Positions 39,784 through 58,905 of a DNA stretch of 64,000 bases are shown here, piece after piece (within the stretch, counting starts at the first letter, position 1; each line of letters starts with the position of its first letter). Location: positions 1,440,001 through 1,504,000 of the forward strand of contig CAWFGO010000001.1 of assembly GCA_963815455.1 (NCBI GenBank), in the 5' to 3' direction. The stretch is from an uncultured Verrucomicrobiae bacterium (GTDB taxonomy: Bacteria; Verrucomicrobiota; Verrucomicrobiia; Chthoniobacterales; UBA10450). Below the pieces are notes generated by a model. The model saw only the letters and a program-made list of their open reading frames with translations, was not told the DNA's origin and ran no database searches. Position numbers and translations under genes: made by a program.

Positions 39784-39899
39784 GTCACGACCAATCTTTC
39801 CGGTCGCGAGTGTACCGAAGGGTTATCGGGTGACCAATCGAATCCTCAAAGGATCCCTCGGAGGACCAATAATCGGCCCAAATATTCCGCACCCGTGCG

Positions 39900-40474
39900 G
39901 ACCCACGGGTAAGAGCAGCCCTGGTCGAATGCGCCTGGCGCATGGTCCGTTTCCAGCCGCAATATCCACCGGTCAAAAAGAGGCTGCCCGTTTTGGCCAA
40001 AGGGGCAAAGGCCACCGGAGGGCAACGCAAAAAAGCGATCGTGGCCGTGGCGCGCCGGCTGGCGATGGATTTGTGGCGAGTGCATACCGGACGGCTCACG
40101 GCGCAACAATTGGGTTTAAATATTAAATAAATGAGTTCGAGGGGAACAGGGATGAGCTAACTCGATTAACTCAAAGAGAACGCTTTGGAACGTGGCGTGT
40201 GTCCGGAGTCTAACCTGGTCCGATCCCCGAAAACGTTCGGGGCTCGCACCGTCGCTTTAGATTGGACCGCGCCCACGTTCCGCTTCAGTTGGACGGCATA
40301 AGTCACATTGCGCTGTCAGCAAAAGCATCGACATGCGCGGATAGGAGTATCAGCCGCTGAACAACTCAGTGCGCACCAGAGGCGGAAGCGTTCCAGACCA
40401 ACTCCAACCTCAAACCCCAACAAAACCATGTAATCGCCATCCCCAAAAACTCACCGTTGACACCCTTCATAGGG
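39900..40474 (+). mobile_element. 5'-truncated IS110/IS1111-type element inserted at the last attC
   Basis: Transposase C-terminus 'PRVRAALVECAWRMVRFQP..KKAIVAVARRLAMDLWR' to 40130; structured non-coding region; right end GTTGACACCCTTCATAGG resembles that of the 49-50 kb IS; abuts GTTAGAC. Confidence 0.85.
40135..40400 (+). ncRNA. putative bridge/seek RNA of the truncated IS
   Basis: Stems GGAACGTGG/CCACGTTCC, GTCC/GGAC, CCCCGAA/TTCGGGG, CTTC..GAAG; loop GTCTAACC complementary to flank; boundaries approximate. Confidence 0.65.
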
Positions 40475-40906: not shown

Positions 40907-40995
40907 TACGCTTTACGTCTAACGAGACAGAGATAAGCCACGGCAGGGTGTCGTGGCAAACACACTGAACGCATTTCGAAATGAAGCCGTTGGCT

Positions 40996-41454
40996 TCATC
41001 GATTTGTTAGATGGTCTGGTCTGAAGACGTGTCGGGTAAGAGAGCCGGTGAGACAAGTAGCACCGCCGACAAGTGCGGCTATGCCACAAAACTCCCAAGC
41101 ACCGTATGACCAAGAGCCATCGCCTGGATACGCTAGGAAAACGCCTGTCATGATGAGAAATCCTGCAGTCGCCCCGCAGGCGGTGCAAATGGGCCAGTGC
41201 CACAAAGAGGATGATGAGGGCACAAAGAGGTAAAGAGGAATCAGAACGAAAAGCCACACGGGAATGATAAAGTATGCCATGAACCAGCTCGTCGCTATCG
41301 TACTGCCGAACACTAAGCCCACATCCAGCGCGTGGCGCTGCCGAATCGCATCGACGAAGTAGGTGGACTCGAGAGCTACGAGCGTCACCACCCAGCCGGC
41401 AAGAACCGCAACAAGCGTTCCAACGAGCTGCTTGAAGATGGAGCGTGCGACCAT
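40996..41454 (-). CDS. cassette 25: membrane protein, identical to cassette 8
   Basis: ATG overlaps GTTAGATG; 4 TM. Confidence 0.75.
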   Translation of the reverse strand: MVARSIFKQLVGTLVAVLAGWVVTLVALESTYFVDAIRQRHALDVGLVFGSTIATSWFMAYFIIPVWLFVLIPLYLFVPSSSSLWHWPICTACGATAGFLIMTGVFLAYPGDGSWSYGAWEFCGIAALVGGATCLTGSLTRHVFRPDHLTNR

Positions 41455-41579
41455 CTAACGAGACCAAGCTCAGCGGCGGCTACCAGGAGCGCGGCTGAAA
41501 ATCTCTGGAACTGTTTTAATCATGACAAAATATGAACGCACAGCGGTCCGCCGTTCGCTCCATCGCATGGTTAGATGAT

Positions 41580-42011
41580 TTAATGATTCTCACCATGAAT
41601 TTCTTTTCCAAGTTTTTCTCCCAACGCACGGCCTTGCGCTGCCGAATCGACGAGCTTCTGATGCGTCTCAGTATCTGTAGAAACCAAATCGTCGCTCGCC
41701 GTAATCCCAAACGAATCGATGACAAGATCCTTCCGCCGATCCTCGAATAACAAAACTGTAGTGTAGCTCGATGTCGGACTCTCGGTCAGCGTAACGGAAT
41801 ATGGAAACTCGGCGGACACATCGAGTGACGAAATCTTTGCGTCTTTGACGGCAACCAAGACGCGCTTGTGTGCTGCAGCTGATATGATGAACCACGCGGG
41901 ATGCCCTTCCATCCGATGGGCCGCTGTCAATTTGAGATCACTGCGCTGATCGCCAGCGAGTGCGAATTGGCCGGTGATGACGAAGAGGAAAACGAGAACG
42001 CGCGCTATCAT
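41580..42011 (-). CDS. cassette 24: secreted hypothetical, identical to cassette 7
   Basis: Signal peptide; fills cassette. Confidence 0.75.
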   Translation of the reverse strand: MIARVLVFLFVITGQFALAGDQRSDLKLTAAHRMEGHPAWFIISAAAHKRVLVAVKDAKISSLDVSAEFPYSVTLTESPTSSYTTVLLFEDRRKDLVIDSFGITASDDLVSTDTETHQKLVDSAAQGRALGEKLGKEIHGENH

Positions 42012-42136
42012 CTAACGAGCACAAGCTCAGCCACCGCTGGCGGGAGCGAGCTTTGCTGCGGATTTTAGTGTTGAAGTCGTCGAAAATCTACTCATCGGAA
42101 CGGCCAGCGGTTGGCTGGAGCGTTTGGTTAGATCGG

Positions 42137-42442
42137 TTAGCGTCCTGGCTCTGCAATGACTTTCATGTTGTTGACCTCCACAATGACTTTCTTGTCGTTG
42201 ATCTGCCATTTCCCTTTGACGTGCTCTACCAGGTAGCCGTTCGGGCCACGAACGTCGACGTATATATAGTCGCTGGCCAATTGCTCATATGATAGGATTG
42301 CGGCCGAGGTCTTGGCGTGGATAACGCGGCTGATCTCGGCAATGTCAGTCGCTGAGATTCCGTGAAGTCGAGCCACTGTAGTCGCGCACGATGTGAGCAC
42401 CACTGATCCAATAATGGCCGCAACGCAGAGGGTGGTGTTCAC
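42137..42442 (-). CDS. cassette 23: putative lipoprotein
   Basis: Lipobox 'VLTSC'. Confidence 0.7.
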   Translation of the reverse strand: MNTTLCVAAIIGSVVLTSCATTVARLHGISATDIAEISRVIHAKTSAAILSYEQLASDYIYVDVRGPNGYLVEHVKGKWQINDKKVIVEVNNMKVIAEPGR

Positions 42443-42560
42443 GATCTAACGAGAACAAGATGAGCGACGGCGGACGAGGGCGCGCATCGCTCGGAGTGAG
42501 AGTGGGGAAGTCATCTTAAATGTGAACGCACAGCGGTCCGTCGTTCGCTCCATCGCATGG

Positions 42561-42845
42561 TTAGATCTTACGAGATAATTGCTCCTTCTTGTCGAGTCGT
42601 TCGGCAAGTTTCTCTTCGCGCCTCAGCCCCTTCTCCATACGGGGGAGAAACACGTTCTTCACCCAGTCTTTGTGAGGCGGCAGTTCTTTGCCGTTCCTGA
42701 ATTTGCTATCAAACAGAGGCCGAAAGCCGACCCAATGTGCATGCTTGCCGGTCTCAAGATACTCCTTCGCTTTAGCAATGGCTTGTTCGATCAACTTGAT
42801 GCGTTCAACGGGAGCCATTTGCTTCGTGTTCAGTCTAAACGCCAT
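42561..42845 (-). CDS. cassette 22: small basic hypothetical protein
   Basis: ORF fills cassette, stop in R'' box. Confidence 0.7.
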   Translation of the reverse strand: MAFRLNTKQMAPVERIKLIEQAIAKAKEYLETGKHAHWVGFRPLFDSKFRNGKELPPHKDWVKNVFLPRMEKGLRREEKLAERLDKKEQLSRKI

Positions 42846-42977
42846 AGCTTTGGATCTAACGAGAACAAGATGAGCGACGGCGGACGAGACCGTCCGTCGC
42901 TCGCGGTGAAAGTGTAGAAGTCATTTCAAAAGTGGAGCATGCAGCGGTCCGCCGTTCGCTCGATCGGATGGTTAGAT

Positions 42978-43334
42978 CTAGTGGTGCTGCCGGTCGAACT
43001 CGTGAAACTGCTTCGTGATATCAAAATAGACTTTATATTGTTTGCCACGCATTCGGAATGTGAAGCAATCGTAATATCTGTCCTCTTTCTCGTGCGCAAT
43101 TAAGGCGTGATCCTCGCCGACATCACTCACAGGCTGGCCAAACGCAAAGTGCTCAGGGAAATGCTTCTCCAGATACTGGCGCTCCCAGTCGTGATAATGC
43201 GCGTAATCGACCGGAACCACGACTGCCCTTGCCTCACTTGAGCCGTCTCGTGCGGATTCGCCCGCATGCACGGAGGTGACGCAGATATGCGAGAGAAGAG
43301 CCAAAGCGATTAAAAGAGCTGGAGTCGTGCGCAT
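42978..43334 (-). CDS. cassette 21: secreted hypothetical protein
   Basis: Signal peptide; C-terminal 'KVYFDIT'. Confidence 0.7.
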   Translation of the reverse strand: MRTTPALLIALALLSHICVTSVHAGESARDGSSEARAVVVPVDYAHYHDWERQYLEKHFPEHFAFGQPVSDVGEDHALIAHEKEDRYYDCFTFRMRGKQYKVYFDITKQFHEFDRQHH

Positions 43335-43455
43335 AAGATCTAACGAGACAGAAGTGAGCTACCGCCACCGAGGGCGAGCGGTGCTCGAAGTGAAGATGTT
43401 CTGGTCATATCAAAAAGGGATCGCACAGCGGGTGGCGGTTAGCTCGACTGATTGG

Positions 43456-43998
43456 TTAGGTCTTCTTCGGTTTGTGCAACATGGCTACTGCGTCCTTCGG
43501 CATGAAAGTCCAACCAATCAGTTTGCCGCGGTGAAAAACTCGCACAGCGATGAAGTCATCTGGAACGTTCCAAGGGCGCTTCTCTGGACGACTGGGAAAG
43601 TAGTCTGATTTGTCTGGATGTGCGGCTGAGGAAATCTCGACTGCGTCCGGGGGCAGCTTGGGATTTGGAGTGAACGGGTCATCCATCTTCTTTGCAGGTT
43701 CCCCCCACTGAAGCGTGTCATAACCTTTGAATACGCCACGCTCGTATGTGCGCACGAGATGATGGGTAACAGCTTTATCTTTGTGTTCGTTTTCTCTCTT
43801 TATCTCCGCTTCTTTTGCGGCGTCGTAATGAGGATCGCCTGGCTTCGGTAACTGCCAAGGTGTGGATGTCGCTGGCGGATCATTTCGCTTCAACTCGATG
43901 CTGTCCGGCGGCAATCTGTCATCGCCCACGACGGTTTGGGCGCACGCGTACTTGAGCAGTGCTGCGATGATGAGGGTGACGAAGAGTGTTGCTTGCAT
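43456..43998 (-). CDS. cassette 20: secreted Pro-rich hypothetical protein
   Basis: Signal peptide; stop in R'' box. Confidence 0.7.
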   Translation of the reverse strand: MQATLFVTLIIAALLKYACAQTVVGDDRLPPDSIELKRNDPPATSTPWQLPKPGDPHYDAAKEAEIKRENEHKDKAVTHHLVRTYERGVFKGYDTLQWGEPAKKMDDPFTPNPKLPPDAVEISSAAHPDKSDYFPSRPEKRPWNVPDDFIAVRVFHRGKLIGWTFMPKDAVAMLHKPKKT

Positions 43999-44113
43999 AG
44001 ACCTAACGAGAACAAGATGAGCCACCGCGCGAATTACGAGTGGCGTTCATAAGGATGGAAAATCTAGGCATACCGCTGGTCCGCGGTTGGCTCGATCGCT
44101 TGGTTAGACGATT

Positions 44114-44557
44114 TCATTGTGCGAGTGCGGCGACCGCCTCTTTCCTGACTTTCATCGCACGCTTCTTAGCCTCTGCTTCGCCATATTTGTTGACGGAAAA
44201 GACCCTCACCTTTCTGTTGCCACGACGGTCCGTGAAGTTGGCGCGCCAGAAGTCGTATGGTTTGCCTTTTGAGATTGTAGTGATGCGTGCAACCCCCACG
44301 ATACCAGAGGGCGACTTACGCCGCTCGACCTCGCAAGAATCGCGACGGGACATGCGAGGGAAAGCTTCGCGAATCTCTCGCCAGCATTTTTTCGCCTCTG
44401 CCAGCGCAGCGGCTTCGCTAGCGTATTTTTTGAACGGGAAATACTCTTGAAACATTGCGCCCTGTCGCAGGAGCTTTACGCGGTAACATGCGACGCTCTG
44501 GTCTGGATAAAACATGCGCTGCAAACCGCGAAATCCAGCGACCGTTGTAGTGGGCAT
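44114..44557 (-). CDS. cassette 19: AP2-domain DNA-binding protein
   Basis: 'SGIVGV..WRANF..KVRVFSVNKYGEAEAKKRAMKVR' plus a weaker N-terminal copy 'EYFPFKKYASEAAALAEAKKCW'. Confidence 0.7.
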   Translation of the reverse strand: MPTTTVAGFRGLQRMFYPDQSVACYRVKLLRQGAMFQEYFPFKKYASEAAALAEAKKCWREIREAFPRMSRRDSCEVERRKSPSGIVGVARITTISKGKPYDFWRANFTDRRGNRKVRVFSVNKYGEAEAKKRAMKVRKEAVAALAQ

Positions 44558-44639
44558 ATGCGCAATCGTCTAACGAGACGGAGCTGAGCCACCGCTGGCG
44601 ATGGCGAGCATGGCAGACACGAGGAACTGTTTCATAAAA

Positions 44640-45032
44640 TTATATGTGCGCATCGCGACGGCCGGCGGTTGGCTCGAGCGATTGGTTAGATGATGTCGAT
44701 GCGTCAGCACCAGCTTTTCTTTTCGCTTTCCACTCTCGCAGGAAGGCGATGAGAAACCCGAGCCCAAGAAACGAAGCGATGCAAATGACGACGATGGTGA
44801 TGGCGAATCGTGTTGCGGGAAGATAGCGGCCAACCAGACGACTAAGGCCGGACAGGATGATAAAAATAGTGAAATAAGCGCCTGCATATCGAAATAGCAT
44901 CTGCGCAACGGACTCTTTCTTATCATGGATCTCCACGATAGGACCTTCTGGCGAGCCATAGAGATCTTCGCGCTGCTCTCGACGCCAAAGCTCGAATCTA
45001 TAGCGAAAGCGCTCGATGAGTTCGCTCTTCAT
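44640..45032 (-). CDS. cassette 18: 2-TM membrane protein, reads into attC
   Basis: ATG at GTTAGATG. Confidence 0.7.
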   Translation of the reverse strand: MKSELIERFRYRFELWRREQREDLYGSPEGPIVEIHDKKESVAQMLFRYAGAYFTIFIILSGLSRLVGRYLPATRFAITIVVICIASFLGLGFLIAFLREWKAKRKAGADASTSSNQSLEPTAGRRDAHI

Positions 45033-45167
45033 CTAACGAGAACAAGATGAGCTACCGCTGTCTACAGCCAGCTCCGCTCGAAGTGAACATAGTTTAGTCA
45101 TGCAAAAATGTAAGCCCGTACGGGACAGCGGTTAGCTCCATCGTCTGGTTAGATGTCTTTGGTGTGC

Positions 45168-45491
45168 TCACACTTTGTCGCGGCGCAGACGATCCACTGC
45201 GGTGAAGCAACCGAAGTAGATAACACTGTAGAGTAAAGCAGGTGCTCCGAATGCGATAACTGTGCCTGCAGCGATAGACAAGGTACTCTCGCCTACCAGA
45301 TGAATGAATGCCGCGCCGGCGGAAAACCCCCAGTCGGAGAAAGGTGATAGTGCGCGACTGAGCGGTGTATCGGGGCCATTATGGTCGAAATTTCGCGCGG
45401 TCGTCCACGTGCCGACCATTAGCGCGGCGAGTGTGACGCAACCCAATACCACGCTCCACGCTACTCGACGAATTGGGAAACGCGCTGGCAT
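45168..45491 (-). CDS. cassette 17: membrane protein
   Basis: ATG at GTTAGATG; hydrophobic. Confidence 0.7.
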   Translation of the reverse strand: MPARFPIRRVAWSVVLGCVTLAALMVGTWTTARNFDHNGPDTPLSRALSPFSDWGFSAGAAFIHLVGESTLSIAAGTVIAFGAPALLYSVIYFGCFTAVDRLRRDKV

Positions 45492-45631
45492 CTAACGAGA
45501 ACAAGATGAGCGACGGCGGACGAGGGCGAGCGTCGCTCGGAGTGAAAGTGTAGAAGTCATCTCAAAAAGTGGAGCGTACAGCGGTCCGCCGTTCGCTCCA
45601 TCGCATGGTTAGGTCTGGTGTGAAGATAACA

Positions 45632-45958
45632 CTAGAACTCATAAGGCGGACCGGCGGCATGAACAAACGGCTTGCCGCGCGACTCCGGATCGTAGCCAGC
45701 AGTGATCGCCTGCTGAATGCACTCGACGAGTCGGCGATTGGGAAGGCGGAATCGCTGATGCTGCGGCATATCTCTATGGGATCGGTCGATGGAGAATTCT
45801 AGCAGTAATTGGCGTCGGCTTGCCTCTGTGGGCTCGACAAGAATTGCTAATCCACGTAAGCCGATTTGCTCGTGACGTGATGTGGCCCAAGTCGGTTGCC
45901 GGTGGACACGCCACCGATACTCATCATCTCCCACCGTGATTGTCCCCGACGATTTCAC
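45632..45958 (-). CDS. cassette 16: hypothetical protein
   Basis: AGGAG RBS + GTG; 'ITVGDDEYRWRV..IQQAITAGYDP'. Confidence 0.7.
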   Translation of the reverse strand: MKSSGTITVGDDEYRWRVHRQPTWATSRHEQIGLRGLAILVEPTEASRRQLLLEFSIDRSHRDMPQHQRFRLPNRRLVECIQQAITAGYDPESRGKPFVHAAGPPYEF

Positions 45959-46089
45959 GAAGCGCTCCTAAGACCTAACGAGAACAAGATGAGCGACGGC
46001 GGACGAGGCCGCGCGTCGCTTGGATTGAAAGTGTGGAAGTCATCTCCAATGTGAACCCACAGCGGTCCGGCGTTCGCTCCATCGCATGG

Positions 46090-46380
46090 TTAGACCTGTC
46101 GTGTGTTCGCATGTGTCCGCCTCAGCCTGATCGCTCTGACTAAGCTGAGAATAGTAAACCAAACGGCTACTTGCGCGAGCAGCATCAACGCCGCCTGCGG
46201 TGGACTCTGCGCGGGAATCCCCTCGGGCGGCAGGTGTGGAAGTGCGAGCAATATGCCTGGCATGTTGATGGCGAACACGAGCGGCGAGAACGCCGATTGC
46301 CAAGGCGCTTCCAGCAGCGCCGGCGCGCCACAAAGGAGCGCAATCCCGGCAGCGAGAATGAATCTTCGGGAGCGTGTCAC
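46090..46380 (-). CDS. cassette 15: membrane protein
   Basis: Stop in R'' box. Confidence 0.65.
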   Translation of the reverse strand: MTRSRRFILAAGIALLCGAPALLEAPWQSAFSPLVFAINMPGILLALPHLPPEGIPAQSPPQAALMLLAQVAVWFTILSLVRAIRLRRTHANTRQV

Positions 46381-46513
46381 AGCGTTCGGCTCGAGGTCTA
46401 ACGAGACGGAGCTCAGCCACCGCTGGCGGCAGCCAGCTTTGCTGCAAAGTTTAATGTTGAAGTCATGTGAAAGCTGGTCATCGGAACGGCCAGCGGTTGG
46501 CTGGAGCGATTGG

Positions 46514-46978
46514 TTAGATGTCTCCTATCTCGTCGGCGTGCTCCATTAAAGTCTTCGATGGGACGTCACCTTTGGAAAACAAGACTTTATCTTTTCGGAC
46601 GAGCGCGACACCTACAAATCGATTGTTTCCCTTGTATTCGATGTCTGGTGTCAGATCGCCCGGACCAACTTTGCTGTGCTCCGGAGGCACATGAATATAC
46701 ATATACCAAACCTGCACACCGCCGCGGAGGCGAATCCTACCGCTGCAATGCTGGCTGCTACAAATCACTCTCAAATGATCTAGGTCGCTCTTGGTGCTGA
46801 GAAATGGCGTGAGTCGCGACCAGAGGTCATACTCCTTGGTTACCGGATAACCGATAGCCTGGCGGCAGATGCGCTTAATCTGCGCGACATCACTCGATGA
46901 CAACGCTCGATCTGCTGCGTGCGAGGAGTGCGTTGCTGACGCCGAAAGCAGGAACATCAGGATGAGGTGCCGAAACAT
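46514..46978 (-). CDS. cassette 14: secreted hypothetical protein
   Basis: Signal peptide; ATG at GTTAGATG. Confidence 0.7.
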   Translation of the reverse strand: MFRHLILMFLLSASATHSSHAADRALSSSDVAQIKRICRQAIGYPVTKEYDLWSRLTPFLSTKSDLDHLRVICSSQHCSGRIRLRGGVQVWYMYIHVPPEHSKVGPGDLTPDIEYKGNNRFVGVALVRKDKVLFSKGDVPSKTLMEHADEIGDI

Positions 46979-47103
46979 CTAACGAGACAGAAGTGAGCTA
47001 CCGCCGCCGAGGGCGAGCGGTGCTCGAAGTGAAGAGGTTCTAGTCATGTAAAAATGTGAGCGCACGACGGGTGGCGGTTAGCTCGACTGATTGGTTAGAC
47101 GTC

Positions 47104-47502
47104 TCAGTCCGCGACATAGACTTTCTCAACAGGACCGTCCGGTGCCGCGAGAACACAATGGAGGAAATGTGGCCACGGACGGAAGCCAAGCTTCTTTCCC
47201 ATGTACACCTGGTAAGTAATATAGTACGCACCATGAAAATAAGGGTCCTTCGTGAAATCGGGAGGTCCAAGTAAAGCCGTGACCTCTGCTCGGCTGTGGC
47301 CGATCAGGATATGCTTATCGAGCAAGTCTGGAACCATAGTGCCGCGAAGCTTCGCATCGCCAGCGCGCCAAGCCTCCGCAGCAAACGGTTGACGCTTGTA
47401 AGAAAAATCAGTGACATAAACAAAGAGACCTCCGAGCAAAAGTCCAGCTCCGACCACAACAATTGCGATGACGATTGCAGGCGTCTTTAGGAGTTTGCGC
47501 AC
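47104..47502 (-). CDS. cassette 13: membrane-anchored SmpA/OmlA-like protein
   Basis: 'LIGHSRAEVTALLGPPD'. Confidence 0.6.
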   Translation of the reverse strand: MRKLLKTPAIVIAIVVVGAGLLLGGLFVYVTDFSYKRQPFAAEAWRAGDAKLRGTMVPDLLDKHILIGHSRAEVTALLGPPDFTKDPYFHGAYYITYQVYMGKKLGFRPWPHFLHCVLAAPDGPVEKVYVAD

Positions 47503-47671
47503 GAGGTTACGTCTAACGAGAACAAGATGAGCCACCACTGGCGAGAGCGCGCGTGGCGGCGGGATGTGAGGTTGGAGTCACGGAAAACTTGGGCGTACGC
47601 CGGCCAGTGGTTGGCTCCATCGCATGGTTAGGCGGTTCGCGTGGATGGCCCTGTGCATGCTAGTAAAATCT

Positions 47672-47908
47672 TCATCGGCGAAACTCCCACTTCCGGTGTG
47701 TAATAGTGATATCAGAAATGTCCTCGACTGAAAATGGAATGCTGTCAGAGCCGCGAACTTCTGTGATCGTGCCGCCCACGATGAGCACATCGTCGATGAT
47801 GCGGCCGTCGCGTAACGTGACCGCTGCTGTCTGATAACCCATGCCCGTCTCGCCCTGTTTGAGGAGAGATGGCGCCCACTTATCGGGCAGCTGTAGATGC
47901 GTGATCAT
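47672..47908 (-). CDS. cassette 12: small hypothetical protein
   Basis: 'GETGMGYQ..VTLRDGR'. Confidence 0.65.
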   Translation of the reverse strand: MITHLQLPDKWAPSLLKQGETGMGYQTAAVTLRDGRIIDDVLIVGGTITEVRGSDSIPFSVEDISDITITHRKWEFRR

Positions 47909-48049
47909 GACTGGCGTGCTTACCGCCTAACGAGAAAGAGCTGAGCTACCGCCACCTAGGGCGAGCTCTGCCCGAAGTGAGAGTGATTTACTCATCTGAA
48001 AAATGTGGACGCACGGCGGGTGGCGGTTAGCTCCAGCGATTGGTTAGGC

Positions 48050-48439
48050 CTATTGGGTGCGATGGTTCTTCGGGAGTCTGGGATCTATGGTCTCCTGAGG
48101 TTCTTCTCCGCGCAAGCGACGCTCGTGCGGCGTGAGAAAATCTCCCACAGGTGGTGTCGGCTGCTGAACGCGGTAAAAGCGAGGCTGGCCGGGGACCTCT
48201 TCTGATCGAGGCGTCGATGGCAGCGAGAAAGGATTGTACCGCGTAAGCCGGGAATAGTCGGAAGGCTGTTCCAGAGGTGACTCGCCGGGCATCGTGAATT
48301 GTGCAGTTTTCGGCCGTGGGCTACAGGCAAGAGAAACCAAAACAAGCAAGCCGCAAACAGAAACTGCGTATGAAGCAAAGTAACGCTGTTGATTGCACGA
48401 GTGATGATTGACTGTCATTTGCAAGAGCGCGCCTCGCAT
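48050..48439 (-). CDS. cassette 11: hypothetical, possible lipoprotein
   Basis: Fills cassette; 'SLAC'. Confidence 0.55.
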   Translation of the reverse strand: MRGALLQMTVNHHSCNQQRYFASYAVSVCGLLVLVSLACSPRPKTAQFTMPGESPLEQPSDYSRLTRYNPFSLPSTPRSEEVPGQPRFYRVQQPTPPVGDFLTPHERRLRGEEPQETIDPRLPKNHRTQ

Positions 48440-48571
48440 GGGCCTAACGAGACGGAGCTGAGCGACCGCCACCGGCGGCGAGCTTTGCTTTCGCTGGAAG
48501 TGTTTTAGTCATTTGAAATATGGACGCACAACGGGTGGCGGTTCGCTCGAGCGATTGGTTAGGCCCCTTGG

Positions 48572-48955
48572 TCATTTTGGCAGGGATAATTCTGCGACCC
48601 ATTTTCCATCCTGCTGTTCCCACGCTCTCGTAAAATGCCAGCTGTCACGCCGCGTTTTCTTCTCAACGTTATAATAATACACAACGCTCTCGCCTTGCTT
48701 CTTTAACTGGACGAGAAACGAAACAGGATAGCGCACTGGTCCACGCTCATCGAACGGGACGCAGAAGACACTTACGGCGCCATGCTCGTCAGACCTGCAT
48801 TCGGGGATGCCATCTCTGTGCAGGATAGCCGTGAAGAACTCGCCAGCCGAAATCATCGCCTTATCCCGGGATGGGTCTGTGGGGTCTTTGCCTCGGGAAG
48901 TCGAGCCTGCTATAACGAGGCAGGTGATAAACGCGAGTAATCGCAAAGTTCGCAT
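48572..48955 (-). CDS. cassette 10: secreted hypothetical protein
   Basis: Signal peptide. Confidence 0.7.
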   Translation of the reverse strand: MRTLRLLAFITCLVIAGSTSRGKDPTDPSRDKAMISAGEFFTAILHRDGIPECRSDEHGAVSVFCVPFDERGPVRYPVSFLVQLKKQGESVVYYYNVEKKTRRDSWHFTRAWEQQDGKWVAELSLPK

Positions 48956-49110
48956 AGGGCCTAACGAGAACAAGCTGAGCGACCGCCGCCGAGAGCGAGC
49001 GCGGCTTCAACTGAAACGGTTTTAATCATCTGAAATGTAAACACGCGCCGGGCGGCGGTTAGATGCCATGAAGGGTTGAAAAGCGTGGGCAAAACGGGCA
49101 CACGCGTTGT

Positions 49111-50439
49111 ATGAAAAACAAAACAACAACAACCCTTCATGGCGGAGAGAAGTTTAACAATTCAAGCGCCCCTGGCAATGGGGCAGTGAGGCGGGTGTGG
49201 AAGCTTGGGCTGGACGTGGACCTGCGTTTTATGGTGGTGGCGATCCAGTGTGGGCGGGGAACGATTGGGCCGGCGCGGAAGTATACTCGCGAGCAGTTGC
49301 TCGAGTGGGTGAAGCAAAAAGTGGGTGTAGGCGATGTGGTCTACGCGGTGTGGGAATGCTGCGGATTTGGTTATACGCTGCACGAGCAATTAACTCAAGC
49401 GGGAGCAAAGAGCGTCGGGACGACCCCGATGCGATTAAATTTGGAGCGGCGGCGGAAGAACGACCGGATGGATGCGCGCGAGTTGTGTGTGCGATTGAGC
49501 CGTTACCTGGATGGGCAGAGAGAGGAATTAAGACCAATCCGAATCCCGAGCCGGGGGGAGCAACAACGGCGGGAGCTGGGGCGGCAGCGGGAGTTTTGGA
49601 AACGCCAAGTGCGGCGGCTGGAGAATCACGGGCGAGCGCTGCGGATCGAGCACGAGCATGAGACGCTGGAGGCTGGGTGGGGCGGACCGCGGAAGTGGAA
49701 ACGAATCGGGCCGCAGTGCAGCGAGTTTGTGCGCGGGCAGCTTGAACCGGTCATGGAACAGATCCGAGCGGCCAAAGCGCAATTGGATCGGTTGACCCAG
49801 GAGATTGAAGCGCTGGTGAGGGAAGAAAAAATCCCGACGGGATTGGGTGCGCTAACGGTATCGCTGATCGACGGGGAGGTGTGCGATTGGCAACGCTTCA
49901 AGCATCGCAAAGCCGTGGGCAGTTACACTGGGTGTTGTCCTAGCGAATACAGTTCGGCCGGGATCCAGCGTTTTGGAAGCATCGACCGGCACGGCAACAA
50001 ACATTTGCGCACGCTCCTGGTCGAGGCGGTCTGGCGACTTCTTCGCTGGCAGCCTAACTGGCATGCTCGTCAGAAATATCTGGAGAAATTAAGGCACGGC
50101 GCCTCGCTGAAAAAGAAAATCGCAGTGGCCCTGGCCCGGCAACTGGCCATAGACATCTGGCGCTGGCGAACCGGCCGGGCCAGTGCCGCCGAACTGGGCT
50201 GGAGCCTGTCTAACATTCCAGGTGAAACCCTAACAAACAGATTTAACCCTCAGCTTTTACGAAACGGAACTTCCAAGCAAAGTTTGATTTGGCCGCAGGG
50301 TGGAACGCTGCTCGGCGCTGGAGCTGGTCCTTTGAAACGAAGGGATCATCGCTTAGATGGGGCGCGTTCCGCCCAAAGCGGCTTCCCAAAGTCAGGCACG
50401 ACATCATGGGCTCGCACAACAAAAGCGATGCTCGAATAG
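49111..50439 (+). CDS. IS110-family DEDD transposase/recombinase (homologous part ends ~50210)
   Basis: 'LGLDVD', 'WECCG', 'KNDRMDA', 'GCCPSEYSS', 'GNKHLRTLLVEA', 'VALARQL'. Confidence 0.92.
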   Translation: MKNKTTTTLHGGEKFNNSSAPGNGAVRRVWKLGLDVDLRFMVVAIQCGRGTIGPARKYTREQLLEWVKQKVGVGDVVYAVWECCGFGYTLHEQLTQAGAKSVGTTPMRLNLERRRKNDRMDARELCVRLSRYLDGQREELRPIRIPSRGEQQRRELGRQREFWKRQVRRLENHGRALRIEHEHETLEAGWGGPRKWKRIGPQCSEFVRGQLEPVMEQIRAAKAQLDRLTQEIEALVREEKIPTGLGALTVSLIDGEVCDWQRFKHRKAVGSYTGCCPSEYSSAGIQRFGSIDRHGNKHLRTLLVEAVWRLLRWQPNWHARQKYLEKLRHGASLKKKIAVALARQLAIDIWRWRTGRASAAELGWSLSNIPGETLTNRFNPQLLRNGTSKQSLIWPQGGTLLGAGAGPLKRRDHRLDGARSAQSGFPKSGTTSWARTTKAMLE

Positions 50440-50503
50440 GAGCTGGTGACTCGCCCCGGCGAGACAACACGACAGAGGGAAGCTGCACCCTGCGGATCAA
50501 ACC
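50280..50503 (+). ncRNA. putative bridge/seek RNA
   Basis: Closing stem GTTTGAT..CCGCAGGGTG / CACCCTGCGG.ATCAAAC; GGAACGC/GCGTTCC stem enclosing loop GCGCTGGAGCT; second domain GCTTCCC/GGGAAGC. Confidence 0.72.
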
Positions 50504-50616
50504 ACTAAAGATTGGAAAAACCGGGAAAGGAAAAAACTAAAGAAAAACAAACAATACCCGTTCCACGGTTGACAACCCTCATAGGCGCTCCAGCGCTTGG
50601 TTAGACCTATTCGTGA

Positions 50617-51159
50617 TCACGGGGTGTGCGCTGTCTTGGGCTTTACCGAGACGCTCTGAAACAAGCTTGAGCAAGGAGCGCCGCTCAGCGCCGCTTCCTT
50701 CGGGGAGAGATACATGACGACTCTCAAATCCGGCTTCATGAGAATGTAGTCGATCCGTTGAAACTGCGTCTTCAGAGCGACCACAAAAGAATGCGCTCGG
50801 CAATCACCGACCGAATAATCACGCTCCGAAATGAGCCTCGCGCCGGGCTCTCGTAACATATTGTCTTTGGCTTCGGCGAACGCACCGACAGCGCGAGTCT
50901 GCCACCATGCCTCTGGCATGACAGTGACTTTTGTTGAGATTGTGTCCGCTTTGCTCTGCCAGGCTTTCTCTTCGTAGGCGACGTTGCCCATCGGAGTCGG
51001 AAAATAGCCAGTGTTCGATGCTGTCTGCTTGAACGCGGGCGGTATCTTGAGCGTTAACTCGAACGGTGATTGCTGGAATGCTTCGGCTGGCGGCTTTTCA
51101 CCTGCCGCGAAAGCGGCAGCGGCAAAGGCGAGGAGTGTAATGGTGATGATCGATTTCAT
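50617..51159 (-). CDS. cassette 9: secreted hypothetical protein
   Basis: Signal peptide 'MKSIITITLLAFAAAAFA'. Confidence 0.75.
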   Translation of the reverse strand: MKSIITITLLAFAAAAFAAGEKPPAEAFQQSPFELTLKIPPAFKQTASNTGYFPTPMGNVAYEEKAWQSKADTISTKVTVMPEAWWQTRAVGAFAEAKDNMLREPGARLISERDYSVGDCRAHSFVVALKTQFQRIDYILMKPDLRVVMYLSPKEAALSGAPCSSLFQSVSVKPKTAHTP

Positions 51160-51240
51160 AGGTCTAACGAGACAGAGATAAGCCACGGCAGGGTGTCGTG
51201 GCAAACACACTGAACGCATTTCGAAATGGGGCCGTTGGCT

Positions 51241-51699
51241 TCATCGATTTGTTAGATGGTCTGGTCTGAAGACGTGTCGGGTAAGAGAGCCGGTGAGACA
51301 AGTAGCACCGCCGACAAGTGCGGCTATGCCACAAAACTCCCAAGCACCGTATGACCAAGAGCCATCGCCTGGATACGCTAGGAAAACGCCTGTCATGATG
51401 AGAAATCCTGCAGTCGCCCCGCAGGCGGTGCAAATGGGCCAGTGCCACAAAGAGGATGATGAGGGCACAAAGAGGTAAAGAGGAATCAGAACGAAAAGCC
51501 ACACGGGAATGATAAAGTATGCCATGAACCAGCTCGTCGCTATCGTACTGCCGAACACTAAGCCCACATCCAGCGCGTGGCGCTGCCGAATCGCATCGAC
51601 GAAGTAGGTGGACTCGAGAGCTACGAGCGTCACCACCCAGCCGGCAAGAACCGCAACAAGCGTTCCAACGAGCTGCTTGAAGATGGAGCGTGCGACCAT
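51241..51699 (-). CDS. cassette 8: membrane protein
   Basis: Identical protein to 40996..41454. Confidence 0.75.
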   Translation of the reverse strand: MVARSIFKQLVGTLVAVLAGWVVTLVALESTYFVDAIRQRHALDVGLVFGSTIATSWFMAYFIIPVWLFVLIPLYLFVPSSSSLWHWPICTACGATAGFLIMTGVFLAYPGDGSWSYGAWEFCGIAALVGGATCLTGSLTRHVFRPDHLTNR

Positions 51700-51824
51700 C
51701 TAACGAGACCAAGCTCAGCGGCGGCTACCAGGAGCGCGGCTGAAAATCTCTGGAACTGTTTTAATCATGACAAAATGTGAACGCACAGCGGTCCGCCGTT
51801 CGCTCCATCGCATGGTTAGATGAT

Positions 51825-52256
51825 TTAATGATTCTCACCATGAATTTCTTTTCCAAGTTTTTCTCCCAACGCACGGCCTTGCGCTGCCGAATCGACGAGC
51901 TTCTGATGCGTCTCAGTATCTGTAGAAACCAAATCGTCGCTCGCCGTAATCCCAAACGAATCGATGACAAGATCCTTCCGCCGATCCTCGAATAACAAAA
52001 CTGTAGTGTAGCTCGATGTCGGACTCTCGGTCAGCGTAACGGAATATGGAAACTCGGCGGACACATCGAGTGACGAAATCTTTGCGTCTTTGACGGCAAC
52101 CAAGACGCGCTTGTGTGCTGCAGCTGATATGATGAACCACGCGGGATGCCCTTCCATCCGATGGGCCGCTGTCAATTTGAGATCACTGCGCTGATCGCCA
52201 GCGAGTGCGAATTGGCCGGTGATGACGAAGAGGAAAACGAGAACGCGCGCTATCAT
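51825..52256 (-). CDS. cassette 7: secreted hypothetical protein
   Basis: Identical protein to 41580..42011. Confidence 0.75.
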   Translation of the reverse strand: MIARVLVFLFVITGQFALAGDQRSDLKLTAAHRMEGHPAWFIISAAAHKRVLVAVKDAKISSLDVSAEFPYSVTLTESPTSSYTTVLLFEDRRKDLVIDSFGITASDDLVSTDTETHQKLVDSAAQGRALGEKLGKEIHGENH

Positions 52257-52420
52257 CTAACGAGAAAGAGGTGAGCGATGGCGGCTGAGAGGGCGCGTGG
52301 CTTGCATGAGAAGGAGTCTAGCTACTCAAAGCGTGGGACACAAGGCCAGCCGCCATTCGCTCCACCGACTGGTTAGATGGTTCGCGTGGCATTACGAAGG
52401 ATAATGATAACGGACTCTCA

Positions 52421-52631
52421 TTAGAATGCCCACTTCCCCCAGAACTTCGACACAGCAGAATAACCATCAGCCAAAGCATACGTGAAACGCTGCCGATGAC
52501 GAAGCACAGAAAAGCATGCATAGATGACGATCAGCGGCGTGACCAAAACAAGAAGGACCGGCCATAAAATGAACTTCCAAACGAGGGTGAACACTGCCTC
52601 GACTACCGAACTCAGAGAGTGCCTCGATCAT
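52421..52631 (-). CDS. cassette 6: small membrane protein (one frameshift)
   Basis: 'MIEALSEF/VVEAVFTLVWKFILWPVLLVLVTPLIVIY..WGKWAF*' read by hand. Confidence 0.45.
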
Positions 52632-52761
52632 GGGTTATCGCGATAACGCTCTCTACATCTAACGAGACGGAGATAAGCTACGGCCACTGAGGACGAGCGT
52701 CGATCGAAGTGGAAGTGATTTAGTCATTTAAGCGTAAACGCGTAGCGGGTGGCCGTTAGCT

Positions 52762-53199
52762 TCATCGATTGGTTAGGCGGTTAAGGTTATCGCGAGCCCA
52801 ATGTCCTGGATCGAGTTCCAACGCGCGGCGGTATGACGACGCGGCATTCTGCGAGTCTCCCAGCTCGTTCTGCGCGTTGCCGAGCGCCGCGAGCACATCG
52901 GCAGAAAGATCAGAGGTGAGCGCTCTCTCAAAGCACGCAATAGCAAGCCGAGGCTCTCCGCGCTGACTATGCTCGAGGCCAAACTGGTAATGGACCTCAC
53001 GGACGTCTTCGGCGGTGAGCCAATCAGGGAGCGGCAGGGCGTAGCACGAATCACACACCGTGATCTCACCCACTGAAGTGTCAATGACTGCACACGGGCT
53101 TGCCGTCTTATCGATGACAAGCGATTCGCCGTCGTCAGTGGTCCAACGCTCCGCTGGCGCCTCTGGAATTTCAGCGCGACAGAGAGAACACGTGTGCAT
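52762..53199 (-). CDS. cassette 5: CxxC-CxxC (Zn-ribbon-like) + TPR protein
   Basis: 'CSLC', 'CDSC'; TPR 'AALGNAQNELGDSQNAASSYRRALELDP'. Confidence 0.7.
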   Translation of the reverse strand: MHTCSLCRAEIPEAPAERWTTDDGESLVIDKTASPCAVIDTSVGEITVCDSCYALPLPDWLTAEDVREVHYQFGLEHSQRGEPRLAIACFERALTSDLSADVLAALGNAQNELGDSQNAASSYRRALELDPGHWARDNLNRLTNR

Positions 53200-53341
53200 A
53201 TCGCCTAACGAGAATAAGCTGAGCGACCGCCACCGAGAGCGAGCGTGGCTTCGAGTGAAACTGTTTTGATCATCTGAAATGTGAACACGCGCCGGGTGGC
53301 GGTTAGCTCGAGCGATTGGTTAGATGAAGTGCGTTGCAAAC

Positions 53342-53681
53342 TCATTGTTTTGTCTCGGCTTCGTAGTGTTCCTGGCAAACTGGACAGTAAACTGCGACCT
53401 CTTTGTCGTGATAATCTGCCGAGCGAGTTCGCTGCTGAAAGTAAACAAGGCTGTTTGGGTATTTCCACTGAGCGCGATAATCTGCTTCACCGGGATCAAT
53501 GGTGCCGCGATCAAAATGACTCCAAGCATAGACGACAGCGCGTTTCAGCGGGACGTGATGAATGGAGCAGACACCCGAAGCCAACGACGCTTTGCGAACG
53601 GAGTCGAAGTAAACTTGATGTTGTGCCTCCGTCGCACACGATGCCAGGAGTACCGGCGAAACAGGCGACCGGGAACTTCAT
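53342..53681 (-). CDS. cassette 4: secreted Cys/His protein (frameshifted)
   Basis: ATG at GTTAGATG; later frame 'CSIHH..YPNS..YCPVC'. Confidence 0.55.
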
Positions 53682-53802
53682 CTAACGAGACGGAGCTGAG
53701 CGACGGCCACCGAGGGCGAGCGTGGCTCGAAGGGAAAATGTTTTATCAACTCAAAAGATGAGCGCAGAGCGGGTGGCCGTTCGCTCGAGCGATTTGTTAG
53801 AC

Positions 53803-54254
53803 GATTGGCCGTCCATGTGAAATGTGGTAGGAGACCGCAGCCCGAAGACCCATGCACGCGATGACGAGAAATGTCTTCAAATAGCGAGAGTCGCCTAAGG
53901 AATTCGTAAATAGCCAGTGTACGCTCCACGCAGAGAGCCGTCACCAAGGGGTGCTCGGAAGAAGATCGGCAGTGGATGAACAAAATAGCGCCACAACGTA
54001 AAAGTGAATAATACACATCAGTAATGCGGGCCAGGCACGACGGATGCGATAACGCAACAAAGCGATAAGGCGGCAGCAGCGAACAGAGCGATCTCAACGG
54101 AACTGGTGACGACGTATCGCCTCGCAAAGGAGCCGATGAGCGGACTGTAGGTGAATCGGGGCTGAACTGCGTGGGGTATCCACAACGCTTGCTGCACGAT
54201 GGCAATGAGCCAAAACGTGACTGTGAGAATTGTCGCGATGCGGATGATGCGCAT
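53803..54254 (-). CDS. cassette 3: membrane protein (probably frameshifted; end uncertain)
   Basis: Hydrophobic ORF 54018..54254 with hydrophobic continuation. Confidence 0.5.
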
Positions 54255-54384
54255 AAGGTCTAACGAGACGGAGCTCAGCCGCCGCTCTGGGAGCGAGGCT
54301 GCGCTCCAGTTGAGAATAGACTAATCAAAATCGACATCGACGCGCAACGCCAAAGAGCGGTTGGCTGGAGCGAGTTGTTAGACC

Positions 54385-54753
54385 TCATTTCAATATGCCG
54401 CGCTTTCTAAGGAACCAGCCGATGAAGAACATCAAGATCGCGCTCGCGAGTGAAGTGGGAACAATGAGCCTAAGTGGCATATGCTCTCCAAAATAACACA
54501 AGAGTCCGGAGATAAGGAGGCCGACAATGGCAATGGTCCCAAATAACGTCTTACTCACGGGTAAATGAAGAACTGCATGAAGGCAGTTATCGCTCCAACC
54601 AAGAAAGCCAACCCCAATGCACCAAACGAACTGCCTATAAGTCAGGCCGCGAATAAGCTCGGGCCGGTTGCGGGTCCAGAAGTAGGCAAAGGTGGTGCTG
54701 AGCATCAGCATCCCTCCAACGATAAGGTCCGAAATATTTAGCGGATGGCTCAT
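54385..54753 (-). CDS. cassette 2: 4-TM membrane protein
   Basis: Fills cassette. Confidence 0.72.
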   Translation of the reverse strand: MSHPLNISDLIVGGMLMLSTTFAYFWTRNRPELIRGLTYRQFVWCIGVGFLGWSDNCLHAVLHLPVSKTLFGTIAIVGLLISGLLCYFGEHMPLRLIVPTSLASAILMFFIGWFLRKRGILK

Positions 54754-54827
54754 GGGTCTAACGAGAACAAGATGAGCGACGGCGGACGAGAGCGCGCGTC
54801 GCTCGCAGTGGAAGGGTGGAAGTCATC

Positions 54828-55142
54828 TCAAAATGTGGATGTGGGGCGGTCCGCCGTTCGCTCCATCGCCTGGTTAGGCCTTCGGTGGCGAACCCGCTGC
54901 CCGTGTATGCAACCACCAAGATAAATGCACGCAATCACCGCGAACGCCGTCCCGAAAGAGTAGCGAGAGAGCAAGAAGCTCATAAGCGCAAGAGAGACAA
55001 ACAGCGCAATACTAAGAATCCAGAACTTGATCGAAAGCTCGTGGGTCTTCAGTGGAGGGCGTGGTCGGAGCGACTGGCCGCGGAGCCAGCGCAAAGAGAG
55101 AATCGCACCTGAGAGCACCAGCCCTGCGAGCAACCCGATCAC
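54828..55142 (-). CDS. cassette 1: membrane protein, reads into attC
   Basis: 3 hydrophobic segments; start may be ATG 55177 with a frameshift. Confidence 0.62.
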   Translation of the reverse strand: MIGLLAGLVLSGAILSLRWLRGQSLRPRPPLKTHELSIKFWILSIALFVSLALMSFLLSRYSFGTAFAVIACIYLGGCIHGQRVRHRRPNQAMERTADRPTSTF

Positions 55143-55179: not shown

Positions 55180-55236
55180 GCCTAACGAGAATTAGACGAA
55201 GGTTCGTAATTAAAGGCGAACATTTTTTCGTCTAAC
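55180..55236 (-). other. attI: attI site at the 3' end of intI
   Basis: Minus strand GTTAGACGAAAAAATGTTCGCCTTTAATTACGAACCTTCGTCTAATTCTC-GTTAGGC; a core site with no attC left half, preceding cassette 1. Confidence 0.75.
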
Positions 55237-56248
55237 TAGGTTGAGGGTTCGAAGGGGGGCGGCAGTCGACAGGGCTGCGTACCCCCAGGCCGGGTTTATC
55301 CAATACATGAGTGTAAATCATTGTGGTTGAGACATCTTTGTGTCCAAGCAGTGCCTGAACGGTGCGAATATCGGAGCCGGCCTGGAGCAAATGGGTGGCA
55401 AAACTGTGTCGAAAGGTATGACAACTGGCCGGTTTGGCAATCCCGGCCCGTTGAATCGCCAGTTTTACCGCGTTTTGGAGGTTTTTTTCCTGAACGTGAT
55501 GCCTGCGAATCTCTCCCGAGCGCGGGTCGAGCGAGAGCTTGGCGGCCGGGAACACATATTGCCACGCCCAAGAGCGATCGGCGTTGCGATATTTGCGGGC
55601 CAAGGCGAAAGGCAGGTAGACTCTGCCCCGGCCTGCGGCGAGGTCCTGCCGGTGCAGCGCTCGCACCCGGCCAAGGTGCAGGTGCAATTCTTCGCGTCCT
55701 GCTTCCGGCAGAAGGGTAACTCGATCGCGCTGGCCTTTCCCGTCGCGAACAATAATCCGGTTGAGCCCCAAATCCACATCCTTGACGCGCAAGCGCACGC
55801 ACTCCATCAGACGCAGTCCGCTGCCGTAGAGTAAAAGGGCCATGAGATGGTATTCGGCTCTGAGTTGCGCGAGCACTGCGTGCGCCTCCTCCGGGGTGAA
55901 GACGACTGGAATTTTGGCTGGCCGTTTGACCCGCTCCGCATCGATGAAGTCGAGTTTTGTATTCAGTACCTCCTGATAAAGGAACAACAGAGCGGACAGA
56001 GCCTGGTTCTGAGTGGACGCAGCCACATGTTTGTTTACGGCCAGATGAGTGAGGAAACGGGTAATCTCCTCTTCGCCCATTTCGTTGGGGTGGCGTTTGC
56101 GATGAAAGAGGATGTAACGCCGGATCCAATCTAGGTAGGCCTGCTCGGTGCGGATGCTGTAGTGTTTTACTCGCAATTGCCAGCGAACGCGGTCGAGCAA
56201 CTTGGGCGACGAAGCGACGGTGGCGGTGGAGGGCGGCACGGTCGCCAT
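55232..56248 (-). CDS. intI: integron integrase
   Basis: '[10 protein letters not shown]', '[10 protein letters not shown]', R-K-HxxR-H-Y residues, integron-specific insertion '[19 protein letters not shown]'. Confidence 0.97.
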
Positions 56249-56374: not shown

Positions 56375-56700
56375 CATCCGCCCTCGTGGCGACTACGGCG
56401 CGACAGGCAGGGCCGTGGCTACAGAAGAGAGGATCATTGCGGGCGACACCCGCCACGGCGGGCAGGCTCGCGCAACTAGACTAGGGAAAGGACACGGCGA
56501 CGCAGCGCCCCGCACACGGCGGGCAGGCTGTGGCTACAACAGATCGACGGTCGTAGACCGCCGCTACAGGAGAGGAAAACGATTGCGGGCGACACGCCCG
56601 CCTCTACACCGAGAGAAGGCACGGCGGCGGTGCGCCCCGCACACGGCGGGCAGGCTGTGGCTACAACAGATCGACGGTCGTAGACCGCCGCTACAGGGGG
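56375..56700. repeat. cluster of REP-like repeats upstream of intI, including a ~65-bp direct repeat
   Basis: CCCGCACACGGCGGGCAGGCTGTGGCTACAACAGATCGACGGTCGTAGACCGCCGCTACAGG at ~56508 and ~56636; several CTAC-ended hairpins. Confidence 0.8.
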
Positions 56701-58315: not shown

Positions 58316-58831
58316 ATGAAGAAGAATATCGATACCATCGACATCGTCCGCGGCGATATTACCAGGCTCGATGTCGATGCCATTGTAAACGCGGCCAACA
58401 GCATGCTGCTCGGTGGCGGCGGCGTGGATGGCGCAATTCATCGCGCTGCCGGTCCCGATTTAGTAGCCGAATGCCGCACGCTCGGTGGTTGCCGGCCGGG
58501 CGAAGCGAAATTGACTCGCGGTTATCGTTTGCCGGCGCGTTTCGTCATTCACACGGTCGGACCGGTTTGGAAAGGCGGAAATAATGGCGAGCCCGATGTG
58601 CTGGTCAATTGTTACCGCAATTCGTTGCAGTTGGCCGCCGACAACGGAATCAAAACCGTGGCTTTTCCGGCAATCAGCTGCGGTGCCTATGGTTATCCGG
58701 TTGCGGAAGCGTCACGTGTTGCCATTGAAACGACTCGAGATTTCCTGACGGCGAACAATAAGATCGACAAGGTGATTTTTGCCCTCTTCGACGAAGATAT
58801 CTACGAAGCGTACCGACAGTTGCTGCTGTAG
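58316..58831 (+). CDS. macrodomain O-acetyl-ADP-ribose deacetylase (YmdB-like)
   Basis: 'GDIT', 'VNAAN', 'GGGVDGAIH', 'HTVGP', 'FPAISCGAYGYP'. Confidence 0.92.
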   Translation: MKKNIDTIDIVRGDITRLDVDAIVNAANSMLLGGGGVDGAIHRAAGPDLVAECRTLGGCRPGEAKLTRGYRLPARFVIHTVGPVWKGGNNGEPDVLVNCYRNSLQLAADNGIKTVAFPAISCGAYGYPVAEASRVAIETTRDFLTANNKIDKVIFALFDEDIYEAYRQLLL

Positions 58832-58894
58832 CGGCGCTCTCTGACCGCCGTAATTCTCTCCAAATATATGCGACGGTCAGAGACCGCCGCCACA
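58828..58894. repeat. REP doublet of the family found upstream of intI
   Basis: GTAGCGGCGCTCTCTGACCGCCG..CGACGGTCAGAGACCGCCGCCAC. Confidence 0.65.
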
Positions 58895-58905
58895 TCTGCG
58901 ACGAA

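Follow-up and report, generated by a model that had tools for sequence, protein, structure and literature searches.

How does an insertion sequence (IS) come to lie at one exact place inside the attC site of an integron cassette? The question is raised by an element in the DNA analysed here, a stretch of 64,000 nucleotides from an uncultured Verrucomicrobiae bacterium (called the window as a whole), where the IS interrupts one attC of a cassette array. The integrase of this array matches profile TIGR02249 with 454.5 bits in a profile search (cut-off, 265), and one pattern finds 24 uninterrupted attC-like sites in the window, spanning positions 40981 to 54877. The cassettes lie on the strand of the integrase, and their array follows the integrase stop, an arrangement that the definition given in PMC7691350 calls a reverse integron. 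This layout (window 55180-56248) includes an attI-like site after the integrase stop; the genome has four integrase matches, and the one at C1:1718417 shows the usual divergent layout. The interrupted attC is a member of a 17-copy repeat family, and with the IS removed the empty site folds into an attC hairpin of -29.3 kcal/mol as DNA. Its boxes, R', L', L'' and R'', are listed in Table 1. The IS puts 1.5 kb into this hairpin and has likely lowered recombination at that cassette boundary; experimental evidence on how such insertions affect cassette arrays is described as scarce in the part of PMC11616780 that deals with them. Two further repeats were seen in this region: a three-cassette block occurs twice in the array (window ~40915-42040 and 51160-52285, with 1 mismatch over 41001-42000), and a REP-like 85-nt direct repeat lies upstream of the integrase (56486-56697), with an inverted relative of it in the hairpin at 58819-58902.

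Table 1. Positions of the element, its parts and its surroundings in the window
Feature	Position	Strand	Remarks
Truncated clade C relative	39897..40473	+	At the array's far end; guide GTCTAACCT (40208-40216) matches a different attC position, next to R''
Interrupted attC, first part	48957..49060	-	R' box 48959-48965, L' box ~48974-48980, variable stem to the insertion point
Insertion sequence, 1525 bp	49061..50585	+	Opposite orientation to cassettes; ends from 4 fully flanked genome copies and homologous junctions
Left terminal extension AGATGCC, 7-bp	49061..49067	+	Predicted donor core AG plus 5 nt
Left-end hairpin	49065..49143	+	Left end pairs with 49130-49143, enclosing the start codon; putative function
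Left subterminal inverted repeat ATGAAGGGTTG	49068..49078	+	
IS110-family DEDD/Ser recombinase	49111..50439	+	As assembled frameshifted at ~50212, 442 aa ORF; in-register stop of the 373-aa form at 50231-50233
Predicted target-binding loop domain	50298..50374	+	Outer stem, internal loop, capping hairpin
Guide 1, GCGCTGGAGCT	50315..50325	+	Complementary to core and right target flank (L'' side); covaries with target
Guide 2	50350..50356	+	Same sense as left target flank and core AG; 186/230 matches against a null of 171.0
Predicted handshake ATG	50357..50359	+	Matches the element's left end after strand exchange; by sequence, concept from PMC13626964
GACATCA	50400..50406	+	Candidate left-end donor guide; paired in consensus fold
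Donor guide ATAGGAG (for right end and core), then handshake CT, ATAGGAGCT	50436..50444	+	Follows right-end variants
TTGACA	50569..50574	+	With CATGAA 17 nt away, putative promoter across the circle junction
Right subterminal inverted repeat CAACCCTCAT plus 3-bp extension AGG	50573..50585	+	
Interrupted attC, second part	50586..50606	-	L'' ~50587-50594, R'' 50600-50606
Integron integrase	55232..56248	-	TIGR02249; attI-like site behind stop codon

Five copies of the element, 96 to 100% identical, are present in the genome. Both junctions are available for four of them, and all four split attC at the same place, next to the L'' box, as an earlier note on this DNA had read from the window copy. 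The left junction is GTT/AGATGCC in 4/4 fully flanked copies, and the right junction is CATAGG/ followed by C, G, A and C in the four copies and then by GCTCC. These junctions move the ends of the element from 49062..50606, the interval first proposed, to 49061-50585. The fifth copy (C6) is probably the same insertion as the C3 copy, because it breaks off at a contig end and shares the left flank of that copy. Since the left junction is constant and the base after the right end varies (C, G, A, C), the A at the left junction was assigned to the element, so that a target reading GGCGGTTA/GCTCC was rejected; the empty target of the window copy is GGCGGTT/CGCTCCAGCGC, with the junction GTT/CGCTCC. 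The two subterminal repeats, ATGAAGGGTTG and CAACCCTCAT, are alike at 10/11 positions with one gap. Outside them lie the extensions AGATGCC (7-bp, left) and AGG (3-bp, right), found in 4/4 genome copies and also across relatives, and extensions of 7 bp on the left and 3 bp on the right are the rule for IS1111 as PMC11187229 describes it.

The same placement holds among close relatives, where a strict pattern finds an R''-like box in 59 of the 73 loci with guide and right flank; four of the misses are attC sites that hold a second element. The upstream half of attC is found by strict pattern in at least 47 of 79 loci, and many of the misses are attC by eye. One insertion (L002; 2400-2500 and 3960-3990) is aberrant, with the left terminal extension absent and the junction shifted 5 nt into L''. 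Joining the element ends creates TTGACA-17-CATGAA; the promoter scan gave 1 match against 0.5 expected. The left-end hairpin has a folding energy of -38.0 kcal/mol, and its internal repeat matches at 11/14 positions or more in 77/89 close relatives. It would form only in read-through transcripts, and may silence those or serve as an extra binding site.

The recombinase belongs to the IS110/IS1111 superfamily: it matches profile NF033542 with 160 bits (cut-off, 140) and has both a DEDD RuvC-like domain and a Tnp domain with the G--P----SG serine. Among 11 sequences, E82, D118, D121 and S282 are invariant and D35 nearly so, their catalytic roles being assigned by motif; the serine motif reads SA in the window element and SG in most relatives. 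The predicted structure is of moderate quality (pLDDT 64.6), and its top 10 Foldseek hits are IS621 and ISCro4; a search of PDB sequences gave no match. At 50212 the window copy carries one A more than the other copies do, giving an ORF of 442 aa that reaches into the RNA region. Two copies, on C2 and C3, keep the intact 373 aa ORF, and another is frameshifted at codon 90. Judged from its reading frame, the protein of the window copy may be impaired, and the intact sister copies could act in trans. In a plasmid collection the 40 matches listed are 25 to 29% identical, and all of the at least 5000 counted lie under 60%. None of six exact protein motifs of the recombinase occurs among the ISfinder-derived sequences of supplement 6 of PMC11187229, which is a weak comparison, by exact motif only.

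The 3' non-coding region, ~350 nt downstream of the recombinase gene, folds as a two-loop RNA of the bridge/seek type. For positions 50285-50480 the fold has a z score of -3.15, and 0/200 shuffled sequences are as stable; the stem GGTGGAACGC/GCGTTCCGCC, seen earlier as enclosing an internal loop and a capping hairpin, was confirmed. Covariance folding with homologues, which the earlier note had proposed as a check, was carried out on 46 sequences (the window and 45 of the 50 representatives). The consensus shows an outer stem, an open internal loop in which both guides lie and a capping hairpin of variable form, besides a second domain; 98.9% of cells are paired, against 34 to 46% in slid controls, and 10/36 pairs carry a compensatory change, so that the fold is conserved. 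In the single-sequence optimum the guide strands are partly paired to each other, and opening them costs 6.5 kcal/mol. Rfam gave one snoRNA match, at chance level.

What do the loops read? One strand of the first loop, GCGCTGGAGCT at 50315-50325, had been described as the exact reverse complement of the target. Sequence and position hold; the match is 10/11 and not 11/11, since the A is element-derived. From genome frequencies, the chance occurrence per 360 nt is 0.0005 for the 11-mer and 0.002 for the 10-mer. The opposite strand, CGCTTAGATG (50350-50359), had been matched to the left junction at 9/10; it is there, and its final ATG corresponds to the left end of the element rather than to the target. 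The AT of this target-loop handshake is conserved. In the second domain, the ATAGG first noticed as a match to an element end extends to ATAGGAG plus CT, and across relatives this donor guide tracks the right-end variants ATAGG, ATAGC and ATAGA. The companion match, CATC to the other end, is not supported as a left donor guide: in 26/26 representatives the best left-end match in the donor loop reaches 4-6/7, at inconsistent places, and the RNAalifold consensus pairs CATCA in a stem.

Do guide and target vary together? Genomes supplied loci for this comparison, as did metagenome relatives (the best 80 of 444), giving 94 at ~60% identity or more after two partial loci (L010, L013) had been set aside beforehand. 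Of these, 10 lacked the anchor pattern and 11 the right flank; once these 21 had been removed, the remaining 73 form 50 clusters at 97%, and 48 were scored once L002 and L005 had been removed for aberrant junctions. Guide positions were set by scaffold motifs, independently of the target. At the variable L'' base, guide equals target in 46/48 dereplicated elements and in three states (guide/target C/C 20, G/G 18, T/T 8, T/C 2). Flank matches total 389/432, against a permutation mean of 344.5 (sd, 5.2; maximum, 364 in 10,000), and for the left flank, read by guide 2, 186/230 against a permutation maximum of 183; guide 2 of the present element has a fixed mismatch (C against G in 15/46). The covariation persists when clusters are formed at 90% (42 rows). 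The relatives are not independent: the clade tree shows 7 changes of the guide base, and independent pairs on starred branches number only 3 per base, with G (3/3) and T (2.5/3) in the same direction, and the sign test (p 0.25) is without significance because 3 pairs are too few to reach 0.05.

The pattern extends to a broad set of 35 lineage representatives, drawn from 118 loci at 31 to 100% identity. These match their own targets at 7.5/9 on average, against 6.0 for 1004 foreign pairings, three own scores being only 6. The first handshake base of the donor loop equals the target base in 35/35 representatives and in four states (null mean, 11.1; maximum, 22), the second in only 8/35. Many distant relatives occupy non-attC sites that match their own guides; one of them (L032) sits in a tandem array of ~75-bp repeats, again with a matching guide. 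Within the present genome, occupied sites score 9, 8, 8 and 8 of 9, and 17/63 empty attC sites reach 8 (p 0.008). The position after the variable L'' base is C in the guides and targets of all 48 elements of this clade (clade A); we also observed G at this L'' position in 34/63 empty attC sites of the genome. The earlier note had staked its claim, that of an RNA-guided recombinase programmed for this attC family, on a guide that covaries with its target and on other copies at related sites. The guide does covary, and the other copies lie at the same attC position; neither result refutes the claim, and both lend it support.

The core dinucleotide departs from this agreement. The guides read AG, the donor core. 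Both ends could be parsed cleanly at 75 loci, counting duplicates, and their left/right cores are AG/GG in 36, AG/CG in 32 and AG/AG in 7, so the AG of the guide is present in the target in only 7/75 and the right core is GG or CG in 68/75. Since the left core is AG throughout and the right core GG or CG in 68, clade A likely recombines across a core mismatch. The junction product is nearly always that expected from a crossover just before the core, and may reflect unstaggered cuts or biased repair. IS621, by contrast, has a strong preference for core pairing in the experiments described in PMC11208160, and AG is present in 16/19 targets of non-attC relatives. Exceptions, in which the left core is target-like, occur outside clade A, in the clade B element of this genome, L037 and L018; two apparent CG left cores proved to be mis-parses, since L092 reads AG and L002 has an aberrant left end.

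The reading that we favour, with a probability of roughly 0.9, is that an IS of the IS110/IS1111 superfamily at the inner edge of L'' in attC has likely been brought there by a two-loop guide RNA encoded behind its recombinase gene. The sequences establish where the element ends, that it inserts at one position and in one orientation, that its RNA fold is conserved and that guide and target covary; the steps that follow are modelled on IS621 and ISKpn4. The element would excise as a circle, and its joined ends would form the TTGACA-17-CATGAA promoter, which would drive gene and RNA. The two guides would pair with opposite target strands, guide 1 in the right flank and guide 2 in the left one, and would overlap at the 2-nt core. 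The second loop would hold the circle junction, and the handshake bases would favour the exchanged state. A crossover just before the core would leave the element's AG at the left junction and the target's NG at the right one.

Could the recombinase instead recognise the folded single-stranded attC hairpin, as IntI does, with the guide match being secondary? The bottom strand of attC is the one that IntI recombines, and it is on this strand that all attC-targeting lineages examined insert, in one orientation; the target core base that mismatches the guide in 68/75 junctions also fits hairpin recognition. Relatives with the same scaffold nevertheless lie in non-attC sites that agree with their own guides, including one inside clade C (L016). 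Moreover, the last T of the left flank faces a variable base on the far hairpin arm (C 22, G 17, T 8 of 47), for which pairing with the complementary strand of a duplex is the better fit. We consider targeting by the hairpin improbable; hairpin or bubble structure may still contribute to guided targeting. It is far harder to believe that the match has no guiding role and arose because a scrap of target DNA was captured, or merely through common ancestry. In favour of such an origin, host attC families are inherited just as the elements are, and the test on independent pairs is underpowered. Against it, the match is divided between two loop strands in opposite senses with 2 nt of overlap, its stem framework shows compensatory changes, and one base of a separate loop 110 nt away changes with the target.

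The extent of the functional RNA is a finer point. Only the short target loop, a seekRNA of ~77 nt, might be needed, with the ends bound by protein at the subterminal repeats and the second loop dispensable. A short seekRNA is sufficient for ISEc11 in the experiments reported in PMC11187229, and the left donor guide was not found in the 26 representatives; the right donor guide, in turn, follows three different right-end sequences, and its first handshake base tracks the target in 35/35, which implies selection on the second loop. We regard a dispensable second loop as unlikely; it is in any case a variant of guided insertion and compatible with it.

How far is guided insertion into attC already known? 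Experiments of 2024 (PMC11187229) demonstrated RNA guidance to attC for ISKpn4 and ISPst6, and ISPa25 is among the published cases as well, so the finding is less of a surprise than the earlier note made it. The present element resembles the IS1111-attC group (ISKpn4, ISPst6, ISPa25, ISPa21; PMC11187229) in its single attC position, opposite to the cassettes, in its 3' non-coding region, in its subterminal repeats with 7-bp and 3-bp extensions and in guide order, the top-strand complement lying 5' of the bottom-strand match. With subterminal repeats of ~11-13 bp and a long downstream non-coding region, it has the architecture of the IS1111 group at large. It differs in kinship and in place. 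ISPa21, meaning the element so named in PMC6739498 and taken from that plasmid, shares 26% identity with our recombinase over 292 columns, compared with 46 to 86% within the IS1111-attC group, and the protein has 373 aa here against 330-350 in that group. Identity to IS1111-type references is 23 to 27% for five of seven, and there is no match to ISKpn2. A tree of 49 rows (IS1111 itself not among them) groups the IS1111-type references in a clade of their own (100/99) and places the element apart from them, in a 22-row clade (96/99) that includes many non-attC members; 90 rows give the same pattern. The deep branches are weak, and clades A/B and C may have gained attC targeting either once or twice. 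An AU test rejects a single clade of A, B and C with ISPa21 (p 3.9e-7; LG+G4, long branches, ISPa21 the sole representative of its group). The junctions of ISPa21 lie at the outer edge of L'', as do the targets of ISKpn4, ISPst6 and ISPa25 in Table 1 of PMC13604230, whereas the present element lies at the inner edge, 8 nt further from R'' than any of the four. Judged by sequence, it works like an IS1111-attC element and falls outside that group by descent and position, contrary to the membership implied earlier.

In fold and in having a target loop and a donor loop, the system resembles IS621 and ISCro4 (PMC11208160, PMC13626964; PDB 8wt6, 8wt9, 9t56). When the present element is read on the opposite strand, its layout equals that of IS621: guide 1 corresponds to target flank plus CT core, guide 2 to the complement of the core plus the other flank, followed by an AT(G) that would pair with the donor after exchange, and the donor loop has ATAGGAG and then a CT that would pair with the target after exchange. 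Two opposite-strand guides overlapping at a 2-nt core and a post-exchange handshake (first base in 35/35, second in only 8/35) are thus as in bridge RNAs; an identical core dinucleotide in donor and target, at both boundaries, is not found, and of the two guides of a donor loop the right-end one is supported and the left-end candidate reaches only 4-6/7. Unlike in IS621 and ISCro4, the RNA lies 3' of the gene, the subterminal repeats are long, the first guide is longer (11 nt), the core is neither conserved in the target nor duplicated, and identity in structural alignment is 17%. Group IIC-attC introns (PMC3001079) are likewise mobile parasites homing to attC, but as retrohoming ribozymes with a reverse transcriptase and no DEDD recombinase.

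The targeting principle is therefore known and is not a new mechanism; lineage, insertion register and core tolerance are apparently new. A literature search with most subscription journals outside it returned no paper that describes these clades, insertion at other registers or attC elements with a 5' region, and the bridge RNAs predicted in PMC11208160 may include clade members. In this large and apparently undescribed clade of guide-RNA recombinases, many natural guide-target pairs confirm IS621-style rules, handshake included, in elements with IS1111-like ends. Bridge-recombinase tools are limited by the core constraint, and the one-base core mismatch of most natural targets here has a bearing on it.

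The element is not alone in using attC: three further attC-inserted IS110-family lineages occur in the same genome, one with a 5' guide region. A clade B element (L177, ~G000:C1:1713595-1715197) has 37% identity, the same attC position, a guide that fits its own attC subtype and GG at both junctions; three different elements of the IS110 family are found here within 7 kb of a single array. The clade C remnant in the window keeps its RNA region and right end intact; its clade inserts 13 nt further on than clade A, adjoining R'', where the guide of the remnant is aimed too. A bulged guide 1 considered for clade C was rejected, since L179 shows the core simply written to match the target. Element D (L197, ~G000:C1:1708906-1710601) is of IS110 type; its 5' non-coding region is long, its CT core is duplicated, and CCATTGCAT and TAACCAG are guide-like. 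It is inserted in an attC spacer, as are its relatives L203, L221, L218 and L219; in its family attC-like flanks were found at 6/30 loci (L202, L203, L221, L218, L219, L216), and guides follow targets by eye. Lineage E (L198, L199, L200, L235) comes from 4/301 genomes, all in the family of the host, and a search of the host genome itself gave no match. Its fully flanked loci, which come from three genomes of that family, are in attC in 4/4 cases, and it has a 5' non-coding region, a CT core inside L'' next to the position of clade A and the guide-like sequences CCCGTTCGCC and GGATGGAG, identified by eye.

Has attC, then, become a target several times over? We propose tentatively, as a possibility that we ourselves find rather doubtful, that it is a convergent target. 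In one family of soil bacteria, at least four IS110-family lineages of separate derivation, 3' as well as 5' guide regions being represented, would partition the 20-bp L''-R'' arm into different registers and stack in one site, their guides being re-tuned to the variable L'' base and the G-variant attC being read by no sampled clade A guide. If true, this would be a readable arms race of guide versus site, run by a recombinase lineage without need for a matched core. The evidence for repeated origins of attC parasitism, at different registers, also makes it testable how insertions freeze or reshape cassette arrays. Two elements are found nested in one attC, A with C at L051, L053 and L063 and A with a D-type end at L066 and L074. 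In the window, the clade C remnant caps the array like a footprint.
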